Positions 3,289-11,035 of a stretch of 11,035 nucleotides of DNA are shown here, piece after piece (position 1 is the first letter of the stretch; each line of letters begins with the position of its first letter). The notes beneath the pieces were generated by a model, which was not told the DNA's origin, ran no database searches, and saw nothing but the letters and a program-made list of their open reading frames with translations. The stretch lies in the UHGV virus genome UHGV-0227640; one strand, given 5' to 3'. A program made the position numbers and the translations under genes. This stretch comes from a virus.

Positions 3289-3605
3289 TCATTGCCTTAT
3301 CTGGGAATCTGTAATCAGGTTTCCGGATGCTGGTGGATTTTCGCGTTTTAGTTGTTCATAAAAGTGCACAGCTTTAACCAGTTCTTCTGATGTAACCGGG
3401 ACTGGCGGGGCAGTGAATAAGGCCTGAATTTCATAGTTCGGCCTGTCGTTACAATCCTCTTTTTTCGGTACATATTTCCAGTCACCAGACCACTACTTCC
3501 CCTGAAAGTCCGTAACGCCTTTTTTTTCACGTAGCGATATCGCCATGCCACTGTTTTTGCTTGCCCCGCCGTTTCATGCCCTTCCTGATAATTAACCTCG
3601 CTCAT
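3289..3605 (-). pseudogene. Decayed Ea22-like paralog (frameshift plus in-frame stop)
   Basis: 5' end (GTG/ATG at 3605, MSEVNYQ...) is DNA-similar to the 5' ends of the Ea22-like genes at 6470 and 7092. After about 20 codons the listed frame turns implausible (basic, low complexity), while the +1 frame carries protein-like WSGDWKYVPKKEDCNDRPNYEIQALFTAPPVPVTSEELVKAVHFYEQLKRENPPASGNLITDSQIRQ ending at 3289, preceded by TAG. Homopolymer runs (T8 at 3520-3527, T6 at 3470-3475) are likely slippage sites. Confidence 0.4.
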
Positions 3606-5720: not shown

Positions 5721-6470
5721 TCACTCTCCTTTGATGCGAATGCCAGCGGCGCGGATTGCAGCGATGACTTCAGAAACTTTGTATGCCATTACCGTTTGGT
5801 AATCATCGTGAAAATCTGTTCGATGAAGCATGCTGCTACGTTCCGGGAGCGATATTTCCCGAGCATCCAGTTCCTTAACGCGTTCCTCCAGTTCGTAGAC
5901 CCTGCATTGTTCTCTATCATCAATCAGATATAACCCAAGACATTCGCTTTCTACCCAACCGCCAAAATCATGATCGTAACGCTCACATGAAAACTCACCG
6001 TCACCGTCCTTTGTTGGAATGGTGTAACTATCTAATGGGCCACCATATGTCGGCACATTCCCCAATGTTGGATGCTCAATCCACATGAAAAATGCACGTC
6101 CGGTTATTGGGCAAATATCTGGCCGCCATTGGTTACGAACAGCCTTGGTTTCGGATAATTCTTCAGCGTGTTGTTTTACTTCCTCAAGCTCAACTCTCAG
6201 CTTCCCTACCGTTAGCGCAATATCCTCGTTCTCCTGGTCGCGGCGTTTGATGTATTGCTGGTTCCTTTCCCGTTCATCCAGTAGTGCCAGCACGGTTTCT
6301 GGTCCGGTCAGAAATTTGAAGGCATTGAGCGCATCAATATCCACACCGTAATCTTTAAGTTCCTGTTCACTTAACAAATCATCATCAGTTGGCAACATTA
6401 ACAGGCGTTCCATTGCTGGAATTGCACGTTCTGCTGCCTCACGCAGTGCCTGGTAATTAATTTCGCTCAC
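5721..6470 (-). CDS. Ea22-like (ead/Ea22 family) early protein, 249 aa
   Basis: GTG start at 6470 with AAGGAGG upstream. N-terminus MSEINYQALREAAERA is characteristic of lambdoid Ea22-like proteins as I recall them. Coiled-coil-like middle. C-terminus ...AGIRIKGE. Confidence 0.7.
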   Translation of the reverse strand: MSEINYQALREAAERAIPAMERLLMLPTDDDLLSEQELKDYGVDIDALNAFKFLTGPETVLALLDERERNQQYIKRRDQENEDIALTVGKLRVELEEVKQHAEELSETKAVRNQWRPDICPITGRAFFMWIEHPTLGNVPTYGGPLDSYTIPTKDGDGEFSCERYDHDFGGWVESECLGLYLIDDREQCRVYELEERVKELDAREISLPERSSMLHRTDFHDDYQTVMAYKVSEVIAAIRAAGIRIKGE

Positions 6471-9017: not shown

Positions 9018-9443
9018 TTAGTGCATCACCACAGCATTCCCTGCCGGGCCGCCGCGATTCATCTGGTCATACAAAACAACCGCTGACGCAACAAAATCAT
9101 CGACATCCTTCACCAGCCGATCCCTCCGTTCGACGATCTCACGGTAATATTCAGAACTGTGGCTGCGCATACGGGCCACCAGCAAAGGCGGCATCGCCTT
9201 TTCGATCGCCGGTAACAGAGCCTGCATTTTTTCAACAGCATCAGGGGTGTCTTTATCCAGCCAACGGAAAATTTTCTGGGTATTACGGGCCAGGGCTTCC
9301 GGATGGCTGTCGTCATACAGTTCCGGGAACGTCATTCCCAGCTCGAAATACGCTTTGGTAATTTTCGCAGCCGGCACTTTTTCGCCGTCCGGATGCGCCC
9401 AGACATTCATCGCCATGCGGATGTGTTCATGCTTGATTTTCAT
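9018..9443 (-). CDS. YdaT-like (CII-like) regulatory protein, 141 aa
   Basis: ORF-track ORF MKIKHEHIRMAMNVWAHPDGEK.... The position (between the Cro-like and replication genes) and the N-terminus resemble E. coli Rac YdaT as I recall it. Confidence 0.6.
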   Translation of the reverse strand: MKIKHEHIRMAMNVWAHPDGEKVPAAKITKAYFELGMTFPELYDDSHPEALARNTQKIFRWLDKDTPDAVEKMQALLPAIEKAMPPLLVARMRSHSSEYYREIVERRDRLVKDVDDFVASAVVLYDQMNRGGPAGNAVVMH

Positions 9444-9708
9444 GAATCAAGCTCCTAGAAAGTGGTTGTGTTAACGTTTTGGTATCTTCCAGCTCGGGCC
9501 AAATATTCATCCAATCAAAAGGCCTTAGTTGCTGACGTGTAACTTCACCATTACTGGCTCGCTCAATAAGGACACATAACGATGCCCCTAACACTTGACC
9601 TTTACTCAATGCCTTTCTTAGATAACCGATGCTGGTACCACACTCGCATGCAAACATACGCTGTTCATCTGACGAAAGAGAATTGAGAAATATTCTTAAT
9701 TCTTCCAT
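9427..9708 (-). CDS. Cro-like / YdaS-like HTH regulator, 93 aa
   Basis: ORF-track ORF. AAGGAG 6 nt upstream of ATG at 9708. HTH-like segment CECGTSIGYLRKALSKGQVLGASLCVLIERAS. Divergent from the repressor gene. Confidence 0.7.
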   Translation of the reverse strand: MEELRIFLNSLSSDEQRMFACECGTSIGYLRKALSKGQVLGASLCVLIERASNGEVTRQQLRPFDWMNIWPELEDTKTLTQPLSRSLIHENQA

Positions 9709-9732
9709 AGCTACTCCTTAGTAAACACAGCA

Positions 9733-9802
9733 AAGAATACCCACAGGTAAACAAAAGTCAATACCCACAGGTTGTTTACCTTGCGGTAATCGCATCTATT
9801 AT
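9733..9802. promoter_or_regulatory. Immunity switch: divergent promoters with operator-like sites
   Basis: Sites TACCCACAGGTA (9738-9749) and TACCCACAGGTT (9762-9773), 24 bp centre to centre. Inverted repeat AGGTAAACAA / TTGTTTACCT (9746-9755 / 9771-9780). Leftward promoter TTGACT (9761-9756), 16 bp, TATTCT. Rightward TTTACC (9775-9780), 16 bp, TATTAT (9797-9802), placing the transcript start at or next to the ATG at 9809 (leaderless, no SD). Confidence 0.5.
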
Positions 9803-9808
9803 TTACCT

Positions 9809-10228
9809 ATGGACAAATATGAATTTAGACGACAGCAACTCATCAAAATTCGTGATGAGAAATGCGATGGTAAAGCGGTTAACGTGGCCAGAAAGATCGG
9901 GCGCGAGCCTTCTTATGTATCAAGAATGTTGTACCCAGAGGGGAAAAAGGGAAAAAAACGGATCGCTGATGATATGGTGGAGATTATCGAAGAGTCCTTT
10001 GGGTTACCCCGGGGATGGATGGATGGTATCGTTTCATCATCAACGAACACAGCCTCCAGTTATGAAACAAGGGTTCTAACGCCACGACAACGTATTTTTT
10101 TAGATCTCTTAGACGAACTGCCAGAAAGTGAAGCGGATAAATTATTAAAAACTCTTGAAGAGAAAAAACAGTATTACAATATGATCTACGAAGAAATCCG
10201 TAAAAAGAAAGCACAAAACGCATCATAG
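9809..10228 (+). CDS. Prophage repressor-like HTH protein (positional equivalent of CI/DicA/RacR), 139 aa
   Basis: ORF-track ORF. HTH-like segment AVNVARKIGREPSYVSRMLYP. C-terminal ...LDELPESEADKLLKTL resembles the DicA C-terminal region as I recall it. No S24 peptidase domain. Confidence 0.7.
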   Translation: MDKYEFRRQQLIKIRDEKCDGKAVNVARKIGREPSYVSRMLYPEGKKGKKRIADDMVEIIEESFGLPRGWMDGIVSSSTNTASSYETRVLTPRQRIFLDLLDELPESEADKLLKTLEEKKQYYNMIYEEIRKKKAQNAS

Positions 10229-10270
10229 CTCACCAAACAACTAGTCACCAGTTAAGACACCGCAAAAATT

Positions 10271-10307
10271 TACCCATGGGTATTTACTTTTTAAATACCT
10301 ATGGGTA
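10271..10307. promoter_or_regulatory. Second pair of operator-like sites upstream of the ydfA-like operon
   Basis: Perfect palindrome TACCCATGGGTA (10271-10282) and TACCTATGGGTA (10296-10307), 25 bp centre to centre, same consensus as the sites at 9738-9773. Confidence 0.4.
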
Positions 10308-10493
10308 TCCTTCTTTTCATACCAACCCACCCCGCCCCACAGAACGCCAGGCAATACTTCGAGTTACCCGGCAGTGGTCAGGGGTTAAGTAGCCAGCCCG
10401 AGGCGTATGAACATGACGGCGGGAACACTTTATATAACAGCGCAGCAGTTTTTTAGTTCCGCTACCCCGGCGTTAAGGGGAAATGAGGTCAGC

Positions 10494-10649
10494 ATGGATA
10501 CTATCGATCTTGGCAACAGCGAATCTCTGGTATGTGGCGTGTTCCCCAACCAGGACGGTACGTTCACCGCAATGACGTATACCAAAAGCAAAACGTTTAA
10601 AACCGAAAATGGTGCCCGTCGCTGGCTGGAAAGAAACTCAGGTGAGTGA
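10494..10649 (+). CDS. ydfA: YdfA/YdaF-family (DUF1391) small protein, 51 aa
   Basis: Internal start MDTIDLGNSESLVCGVFPNQDGTFTAMTYTKSKTFKTENGARRWLERNSGE with GAGG 6 nt upstream. Matches YdfA of the K-12 dicB operon from memory. The ORF-track extension from 10407 lacks an SD. Confidence 0.6.
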   Translation: MDTIDLGNSESLVCGVFPNQDGTFTAMTYTKSKTFKTENGARRWLERNSGE

Positions 10650-10650
10650 T

Positions 10651-10779
10651 ATGGATTTTGACACAATCATGGAAAAGGCTTACGAAGAATACTTCGAAGG
10701 CCTTGCCGAAGGCGAAGAAGCTCACAGCTTCAACGAATTTAAACAGGTGCTTTCCAGTTCGGCAAAATCTAACGGCTGA
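10651..10779 (+). CDS. ydfB: YdfB-like small protein, 42 aa
   Basis: Manual translation MDFDTIMEKAYEEYFEGLAEGEEAHSFNEFKQVLSSSAKSNG. Start is 1 nt after the upstream TGA. Size and position match ydfB. Below ORF-track cutoff. Confidence 0.5.
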   Translation: MDFDTIMEKAYEEYFEGLAEGEEAHSFNEFKQVLSSSAKSNG

Positions 10780-10808
10780 TAAGCGAAACAGCACCGCGAG
10801 GAATCAGT

Positions 10809-11027
10809 ATGCAGAAACGAGAACCCGTCATCATCGCGCCAGACTATACCGATGATGAACTTTATGAGTGGATGCGCCAGAAAATTAATGCAGCGCAGGA
10901 TCTGAAATGGGCCAATGAAGCCAGGACTAAGCAGGCTGAAAATCTGTCCGCTCTGGAGCAGGATATCACCAGGCTGGAAAAAGCAGCGGCATTAAGCATT
11001 GCCAGAATGGTTACATACCCACGTTAA
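10809..11027 (+). CDS. ydfC: YdfC-like protein, 72 aa
   Basis: ORF-track ORF MQKREPVIIAPDYTDDELYEWMRQKINAAQDLKW.... GAGGAA SD. Size and position match ydfC of the dicB operon from memory. Confidence 0.55.
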   Translation: MQKREPVIIAPDYTDDELYEWMRQKINAAQDLKWANEARTKQAENLSALEQDITRLEKAAALSIARMVTYPR

Positions 11028-11035
11028 TAGCTAAC

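Follow-up and report, generated by a model that had tools for sequence, protein, structure and literature searches.

Conserved operators of a 139-amino-acid prophage repressor very probably form a lambdoid OR/OL immunity switch controlling PR and PL

In the Qin prophage of Escherichia coli K-12, DicA was shown experimentally to repress both dicC and dicBp, the promoter upstream of ydfA, and each of the two intergenic regions was noted to contain operator-like sequences (PMC10448788; PMC3441716). Qin induction is independent of RecA and proceeds through the antirepressor Rem or through a DicC-dependent switch (PMC10448788). Repressor messenger RNAs without a leader have been shown experimentally for lambda cI, racR (promoter PracR3) and PY54 cI; of the three mapped racR promoters, one is leaderless and two are leadered (PMC9638921). 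Here we analyze UHGV virus genome UHGV-0227640 over a stretch of 11,035 nucleotides (nt), referred to as the window, in which a gene for a 139-amino-acid (aa) repressor on the plus strand is divergent from a Cro-like gene on the minus strand and is followed downstream by ydfA, ydfB and ydfC. Based on sequence comparison, the operators of this repressor very probably constitute a lambdoid immunity switch with right (OR) and left (OL) operators, which would control both the rightward lytic promoter (PR) and the early-left promoter (PL).

The original prediction for this region described four operator-like 12-mers in two pairs, with spacings of 24 and 25 base pairs (bp) and one perfect palindrome. 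A motif scan of the window recovered all four (Table 1). OR1 (TACCCACAGGTA) and OR2 (TACCCACAGGTT) lie between the divergent genes, 24 bp apart from start to start, and OL2 (TACCCATGGGTA) and OL1 (TACCTATGGGTA) lie downstream of the repressor gene, 25 bp apart; OL2 is the perfect palindrome, and so was matched on both strands. Allowing at most one mismatch to the consensus given in that prediction, we observed 6 matches against 0.23 expected, and none of 200 dinucleotide-preserving shuffles reached 6. The description as two pairs holds for OL, whereas the divergent region contains three operators: a looser skeleton scan detected an additional fifth site, OR3 (TACCTTGCGGTA), which had been overlooked, lies 15 bp after the second site and overlaps the -35 hexamer of the predicted repressor promoter. 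Likewise, the sites defined by the earlier consensus stand but its fixed centre does not, as the family operator appears to be TACC-YNNR-GGTA with a variable centre. The right half of OR2, GGTT, departs from this consensus, and the departure is itself conserved. By-eye inspection of the sequence upstream of 10271 revealed no third OL site. An E. coli strain variant of the region carries 9743 A>G and 10278 G>A, both of which fall within the variable centres of OR1 and OL2.

The skeleton TACCNNNNGGTA matches the window eight times, and five of these matches are clustered in 9738-10307. The remaining three (at 1201, 5790 and 9349) were rejected as operators, given that their number fits the chance expectation of 2.25 and that their centres do not follow the Y..R rule. 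One of them, TACCGTTTGGTA at 5790-5801, is an exact TACC-N4-GGTA skeleton located inside an ead/Ea22-like gene; it is improbable that it acts as an operator. Separately, the sequence TACCTATGGACA, whose first 9 nt are those of OL1, spans the repressor start codon and +1 position and may be an extra weak or half operator, although this is uncertain. It was not accepted as a fourth OR operator because it is not kept in the closest relative outside E. coli; a Salmonella relative (L035) reads TACTTATGGATA in its place.

We then placed the sites relative to promoters predicted by a scan of the window that scored hexamers against 12 consensus positions. The three operators at 9738-9788 overlap the -10 and -35 hexamers of PR and the -35 of the repressor promoter, and the same operators recur as the pair at 10271-10307, which brackets the -35 and overlaps the -10 of the early-left promoter. 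OR1 fills the PR spacer, and PR and PL share a layout in which a distal operator is followed by the -35 and then by a proximal operator overlapping the -10. The order at PL is OL2, TTTACT, 7 nt and OL1, whose last two bases open TATCCT, and transcription is predicted to start at about 10318-10319. The spacings of 24 and 25 bp had been described as lambda-like. The figures are correct, but lambda-type cooperativity is not a necessary cause of them: because the sites bracket a -35 that belongs to a promoter with a 16- or 17-bp spacer, the distance follows from promoter geometry (12 + 6 + spacer - 10), and therefore need not reflect lambda-type cooperativity.

To place the window in a wider context, we compared it with 24 related loci (one genome per species; identity to the DNA-binding domain of the repressor of about 50% or more), two phages and four further short-form loci. 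These loci, about 30 in all, come from Yersinia, Edwardsiella, Klebsiella, Pantoea, Aeromonas, Ferrovum and the phages mEp043 and CharmingMan; counts out of 26 cover the window and 25 relatives belonging to different genera. In these 26 loci, TACC-N4-GGTA sites are found at about -72 (OR1), -47 (OR2, usually ending in GGTT) and -32 (OR3) from the repressor ATG. The TACC and GGTA halves are near-invariant across loci, in contrast to the four central positions and the flanking bases. In OR3, the GGTA half falls in the spacer of the repressor promoter and is still invariant, which argues for protein binding and not for promoter constraint alone. Downstream of the repressor, an OL-type pair with 24-26 bp between its members is present in 27/27 loci and in the four further short-form loci, at distances that range from 460 to 2500 nt across loci. 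In all related loci a TTGACA-like hexamer directly follows the first OL site, and in 25/26 a TAnnnT hexamer opens at the last two bases of the second. The same sites are found whether the C-terminal domain of the repressor is of the S24 type or the DicA type, and whatever genes follow. Outside the operator positions, the frequency of exact skeleton matches in the related loci is only about that expected by chance. All that speaks for the 12-mers being chance repeats or duplication remnants with no regulatory role is that the motif is small. As no shuffle of the window reached the observed count, and the positions are kept across genera while their surroundings diverge, we consider the probability of this explanation to be practically nil.

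Natural exchanges between phages allow the operators to be related to individual parts of the immunity region. In mEp043, the same DNA-binding domain is joined to an S24 C-terminal domain and N is the gene downstream, and the operators and their geometry are those of the window. Conversely, phage Tritos shares the C-terminal domain (72%) and the ydfABC-dicF-dicB operon with the window but has a different N-terminal domain, and its operators differ (GTAC type). We also examined five ydfA-linked loci of other immunity types (Tritos, a LexA-type locus, an O157 helix-turn-helix repressor with relBE, K-12 DicA and a RacR-like locus). None of the five contains a TACC-N4-GGTA site, and each has its own repeat common to its OR and OL regions. 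Thus, the sites appear to track the DNA-binding domain, and not the C-terminal domain or the flanking genes, because mEp043 keeps them despite a new C-terminus and the loci with other repressors lack them. Across these exchanges the operator sequence co-varies with repressor specificity, which is the pattern of heteroimmunity. The homology of the loci of other immunity types to the window begins directly after the PL -10, at ACCCACCCCGCCCCACAGAA, indicating that PL and the OL operators are part of the exchangeable immunity module. This comparison strongly supports the earlier proposal that a single repressor acts at both promoters, since about 30 loci share the sites at both and the five loci with other repressors have none.

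The sites could instead be recognized mainly by the 93-aa Cro-like protein. This protein is 73% identical to the Cro of mEp043, it co-occurs with a three-site OR in 19/26 loci, and lambda Cro binds the same operators as cI. However, seven loci without a Cro homologue keep TACC-N4-GGTA at OR1, OR3, OL1 and OL2, with OR2 lost only in the Klebsiella group, and all loci with the repressor DNA-binding domain have the sites, which loci without that domain lack. The Klebsiella loci (L007, L009, L011-L013) have no Cro-like homologue and retain OR1, OR3 and the OL pair, which suggests that the sites follow the DNA-binding domain of the repressor and not Cro; their OR2 (at about -48) is replaced by TTTGCTATATTTT, and together with the missing homologue this suggests a different lytic-side partner and PR architecture. 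We therefore regard recognition mainly by the Cro-like protein as very unlikely. Use of the operators by both the Cro-like protein and the repressor is likely; exclusive use by the Cro-like protein is not.

With the repressor as the principal ligand, the switch would operate as follows. The repressor, probably as a dimer, is predicted to bind the palindromic TACC-YNNR-GGTA operators. Occupancy of OR1 and OR2 would exclude RNA polymerase from PR and keep the operon of Cro-like, YdaT-like and replication genes silent. As the operator/promoter module of PR recurs at PL, the same protein would also silence the PL genes, with occupancy of OL1 and OL2 occluding PL and shutting off ydfABC, dicB, exo, xis and int. 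The repressor promoter would use the left half of OR3 as its -35 (TTTACC), with a first transcribed base that is the A of the ATG or lies no more than 1 nt from it. Occupancy of OR3 at a high repressor level would lead to autorepression. Lambda cI activates the promoter PRM from a site placed as OR2 is here, and OR2, centred at -41.5, could similarly let the repressor activate its own promoter. Induction would be expected to occur through an antirepressor (e.g., Rem) or a Cro/DicC-dependent flip and not through RecA-stimulated cleavage, because the repressor has a DicA-type C-terminus and no S24 peptidase.

Several observations weigh against this interpretation or parts of it. The predicted PL is weak, with 8/12 consensus matches, which is just under the threshold, and so it was not listed by the promoter scan. 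Only two OL sites are present, compared with three in lambda. OR2 and OR3 are 15 bp apart and abut each other, and it is uncertain whether both can be occupied simultaneously or whether lambda-style alternate pairwise cooperativity applies. Activation of its own promoter by OR2-bound repressor and cooperativity via the DicA-type C-terminus are both conjectural. Leadered repressor transcripts may also exist, given that just one of the three racR promoters is leaderless. Finally, when six of the operator 12-mers were searched for in the literature, none was found in a relevant context, the only matches being unrelated primers.

The repressor itself is predicted to comprise a helix-turn-helix DNA-binding domain (residues 1-76) connected by a disordered linker to a C-terminal helical hairpin of the DicA type (residues 89-138). 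Judged by sequence similarity, it is a chimera of an mEp043-cI-type DNA-binding domain and a DicA-type C-terminal domain, because residues 1-86 resemble mEp043 cI while residues 86-136 resemble DicA. The N-terminal similarity to mEp043 cI amounts to 65% identity over residues 1-86 and 76% over a 72-residue core, and the two proteins agree at every position of the stretch REPSYVSRMLY, which contains the predicted recognition helix (residues 34-40). At the other end, residues 86-136 match the C-terminus of DicA (NCBIfam NF007257, E = 2e-5), and in BLASTP the two proteins align over 46 residues at the C-terminus (33% identity), their N-termini showing no similarity. We rejected full membership in the DicA family, as the NCBIfam match scores 24.5 bits against a cutoff of 101 bits and is confined to these residues. 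Also rejected was the cleavable lambda cI/LexA-type (S24) class, since the protein is only 139 aa long and has the DicA-type C-terminus in place of the peptidase. Relatives of 221-242 aa carry Peptidase_S24 (PF00717), and in a large-database search most proteins with this DNA-binding domain were Enterobacterales prophage repressors of the "LexA family", in which it is joined to Peptidase_S24; short forms were fewer.

No Pfam model, including helix-turn-helix models such as HTH_3 and Peptidase_S24, matched the repressor at E ≤ 1, a PDB sequence search gave nothing significant, and for the N-terminal domain no known family was found in Pfam, NCBIfam or PDB sequences; PHROG 5736 ("transcriptional regulator") was the only match. 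Its AlphaFold model (predicted local distance difference test, pLDDT, of 83) contains a four-helix bundle with the helix-turn-helix (residues 23-30 and 34-40), a disordered linker at 77-86 and the C-terminal helical hairpin; helices 3-18, 23-30, 34-40 and 54-63 are modelled at pLDDT around 90. The top Foldseek match is the repressor of the Rep-Ant complex of Salmonella phage SPC32H (5D50; E = 1e-3), and XRE-type controller and antitoxin proteins are also among the best matches. Matches to XRE-type proteins (C.Esp1396I, HigA and SPC32H Rep) have probabilities of 0.9-1.0 but E-values ≥ 1e-3. Some database proteins (P0010 and P0019) start at an out-of-frame ATG at 9819 (MNLDDSNSS...) and later rejoin the repressor frame; they represent repressor copies that are frameshifted, or were mis-called, in some E. 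coli genomes.

A leaderless repressor mRNA is probable, as had been proposed from the lack of a Shine-Dalgarno sequence and the position of the ATG at the predicted transcript start. Both observations were borne out. None of the tetramers GGAG, GAGG, AGGA or AAGG occurs in 9789-9808, and the promoter scan places the canonical +1, 7 nt after the -10 TATTAT, on the A of the repressor ATG. Between the preceding in-frame stop and this ATG, at 9809, there is no other possible start codon. The experimental precedents and the conserved geometry of -35, -10 and ATG without a Shine-Dalgarno sequence support a leaderless transcript: in 23/26 loci, 6-7 nt separate a -10-like hexamer from the ATG, and a Shine-Dalgarno-like run is found in just one (Orbus, L027). 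Alternatively, the mRNA could be leadered, starting further upstream from another intergenic promoter or from an establishment promoter in the Cro-like or YdaT-like genes, with translation initiating in a non-canonical way. Two of the three racR promoters provide a precedent for leaders, the CII-like protein encoded at the locus (PHROG 163) implies an establishment promoter, which would give a long leader, and the Orbus locus combines its G-rich Shine-Dalgarno-like run with the absence of a -10 at the expected place. On the other hand, 23/26 loci conserve an arrangement in which TTTACC is separated by 16-17 bp from a -10 and the ATG follows after another 6-7 nt, no in-frame start lies upstream, and residues 1-8 of the repressor are invariant or nearly so among relatives. 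Lambda PRM has the same -10-to-ATG geometry as the repressor promoter here. Given this conservation, a leadered mRNA seems unlikely.

The OL pair at 10271-10307 could also, or even mainly, act as an intrinsic terminator of the repressor transcript and so block read-through from the repressor promoter, which is constitutively active, into the toxic ydfABC-dicB operon. In the transcript, base pairing between OL2 and OL1 can give a 16-bp hairpin (stem of about -22 kcal/mol), after which comes a U-rich tail, UCCUUCUUUU, and the element was flagged by a terminator scan. Its predicted fold (-23.4 kcal/mol, z = -4.5) was matched in stability by 0/200 shuffles, and among 27 loci the OL hairpin of the window is the most stable (-21.4 compared with -4.4 to -17.1 kcal/mol). 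Seven of the first 10 bases of the tail are U, and no other hairpin is found in the 42 nt from the stop codon to OL2. Furthermore, in mEp043 and in two ydfA-linked loci (L030 and L031), OL is preceded by a canonical terminator of its own. Yet two similar palindromes at a distance of 25 bp will inevitably give some hairpin, the stem here is AU-rich, and C residues interrupt the proximal UCCUUC tail. The element is not conserved in relatives, and K-12 Qin is also without an obvious terminator. As a sole function, termination would leave the conserved 12-mers at OR and PL of every relative unexplained. We therefore consider a dual role of the OL pair as operator and terminator to be possible, while termination as an additional or principal function is on balance doubtful.

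More speculatively, the chimera could provide prophage immunity against mEp043-type phages that is proof against the SOS response, in about 15% of complete E. coli genomes, with the OL pair recruited as the terminator of the leaderless repressor mRNA, such that a single 37-bp element would serve as operator, promoter core and terminator. We rate this combined proposal as rather unlikely.

Table 1. Positions in the window of the genes, putative operators and predicted promoter elements of the switch region.
Feature	Position	Strand	Basis
Cro-like gene, 93 aa, first gene of the rightward lytic operon	9427..9708	-	Open reading frame, PHROG 35
Shine-Dalgarno AAGGAG of the Cro-like gene, 5 nt before its ATG	9714..9719	-	Sequence reading
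Predicted PR -10 TATTCT; first two bases are the last two of OR1	9734..9739	-	Promoter scan, 9/12, 16-bp spacer; flank conserved across loci
OR1 TACCCACAGGTA	9738..9749	.	Scan; counterpart at -71 to -75 from the ATG in 25/26 loci
Predicted PR -35 TTGACT, abuts OR2	9756..9761	-	Promoter scan; TCAA flank of OR2 (reverse complement TTGA) conserved
OR2 TACCCACAGGTT	9762..9773	.	Site at -47/-48 in 21/26 loci, mostly GGTT-ending
Predicted repressor-maintenance promoter -35 TTTACC, within OR3	9775..9780	+	Promoter scan; kept in at least 21/26 loci
OR3 TACCTTGCGGTA	9777..9788	.	Site at -32/-33 in 24/26 loci
Predicted repressor promoter -10 TATTAT, 6 nt before the ATG, 16-bp spacer	9797..9802	+	Promoter scan
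Possible weak or half site TACCTATGGACA	9804..9815	.	Similarity to OL1
Repressor gene, 139 aa	9809..10228	+	Open reading frame
OL2 TACCCATGGGTA, distal member of the pair	10271..10282	.	Pair conserved in 27/27 loci
Predicted PL -35 TTTACT, abuts OL2	10283..10288	+	Sequence reading; TTGACA-like hexamer there in all related loci
OL1 TACCTATGGGTA	10296..10307	.	Scan and conservation
Predicted PL -10 TATCCT, 17-bp spacer; first two bases are the last two of OL1	10306..10311	+	TAnnnT there in 25/26 loci
OL2/OL1 RNA hairpin (16 bp) then UCCUUCUUUU, possible intrinsic terminator	10271..10320	+	Terminator scan, folding
Conserved PL (ydfA) transcript leader	10319..10493	+	Homology with loci of other immunity types starts here
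ydfA (10494-10649), ydfB (10651-10779), ydfC (10809-11027)	10494..11027	+	Pfam DUF1391, RefSeq annotation

The Cro-like gene, whose product gives a below-threshold match to the Pfam family YdaS_toxin, is followed by the YdaT/CII-like gene (PHROG 163) and then by an O-like replication gene. A switch region identical to that of the window (9400-10520) is present in one complete genome, in a full-length-looking lambdoid prophage adjoining ompW. The ydfA operon of that prophage runs on through Rha, dicB, exonuclease, xis and int, which makes it a classical early-left operon. Overall, the switch region was detected in 822/5426 complete E. coli genomes (about 15%), and the RefSeq label of its 139-aa repressor is "hypothetical protein."

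The ydfA leader (175 nt) is nearly identical across at least five immunity types, starting directly after the PL -10. A pairing of its C-rich 5' end, ACCCACCCCGCCCC, with the G-rich ribosome-binding region of ydfA, GGGGAAATGAGG, is predicted, although sequence variation in the leader is too low for covariation to inform this prediction. No known RNA family was found in 9400-11035 by Rfam. Elsewhere in the window, a gene pair on the minus strand (602-2358) resembles the Rosmer anti-phage defence system and adjoins hok/sok. The 381-aa protein of this pair combines a helix-turn-helix with an M78 (IrrE-like) peptidase domain and matches RmrA in PADLOC (E = 5e-102), and the 204-aa protein encoded upstream of it has a weak match to RmrT (E = 7.5e-10). 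The neighboring Hok/Gef-family toxin gene (2525-2680) and sok antitoxin RNA (2678-2849; Rfam score of 106.7 bits against a gathering score of 59) are also on the minus strand, and a sub-threshold isrK-like match lies at 2435-2516 (26 bits against 50).

The analysis assigns a function to a gene labelled "hypothetical protein" in RefSeq, together with a predicted operator, TACC-YNNR-GGTA, and three predicted promoters. It also defines a widespread phage-repressor DNA-binding domain, uncaptured by Pfam, along with its putative cognate operator and promoter architecture, in Enterobacterales and beyond. It predicts which prophages run the DicB/DicF cell-division-inhibitor operon through this repressor, as well as cross-immunity with mEp043-type phages, and it offers a clear natural case in which domains were shuffled between cleavable repressors and those controlled by an antirepressor. 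We did not find the repressor family or its operator sequence described. The type of switch is already known: conceptually, this is an ordinary immunity switch that adds nothing beyond the lambda and Qin paradigms.

Like lambda, the locus has a divergent repressor/cro pair with three operators between the genes, and a second set lies past the repressor gene at the early-left promoter, which points in the same direction as that gene. The 24-bp distance between OR1 and OR2 is also lambda-like, as are their centres at -65.5 and -41.5 from the repressor start; the corresponding centres in lambda are at about -66 and -42. Also shared are the distance of 6 nt between the -10 hexamer and the repressor ATG and the lack of a Shine-Dalgarno sequence. 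The differences from lambda include an operator core of 12 bp (TACC-N4-GGTA) instead of 17 bp, a distance between OR2 and OR3 of 15 bp instead of 23, two OL sites instead of three, and a 139-aa repressor without an S24 autocleavage domain. In addition, no N follows PL, and the early-left genes are ydfABC and dicB.

The Rac racR-ydaS-ydaT region (PMC9638921) similarly has a divergent repressor and a YdaS-like Cro followed by YdaT, and its leaderless racR transcript has been mapped. However, RacR is unrelated in sequence to the repressor described here, and its binding sites differ (TTAGGC type) and are more numerous. SPC32H Rep (PDB 5D50) resembles the repressor in being a short non-cleavable phage repressor, which is inactivated by an antirepressor. 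The two proteins are only 16-22% identical and the match is weak, and a common induction mechanism is merely conjectural.

In the cI/Cro region of mEp043 (and CharmingMan), OR1-3 have the same sequences and positions as in the window, and there is no difference either in the OL pair, in how promoters and operators overlap, or in the distance from the -10 to the ATG. A literature search on mEp043 (titles and abstracts) found no published operator analysis for this phage. The mEp043 cI differs from the repressor of the window in its length (228 aa) and in having a C-terminus that aligns with the S24/LexA family, and it is presumably SOS-cleavable. Its PL drives N instead of ydfA, and a separate terminator precedes OL. 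At about 3553-3574, upstream of the OL pair, mEp043 has a split palindrome, TACCTG-N10-CAGGTA, which consists of operator half-sites with a 10-bp insertion and is absent from the window.

The dicA-dicC-dicBp region of K-12 Qin resembles the window in gene organization, with a Cro-like gene, a short non-cleavable repressor and a promoter ahead of ydfA-ydfB-ydfC-dicF-dicB. The C-terminal domain of DicA is homologous to that of the repressor, whereas its N-terminal domain is unrelated in sequence, and the DicA operator is TTGTTAGTCATAACTAACAA (PMC3441716), compared with TACC-N4-GGTA here. The window is a heteroimmune version of the Qin dicA/dicC/dicBp arrangement.

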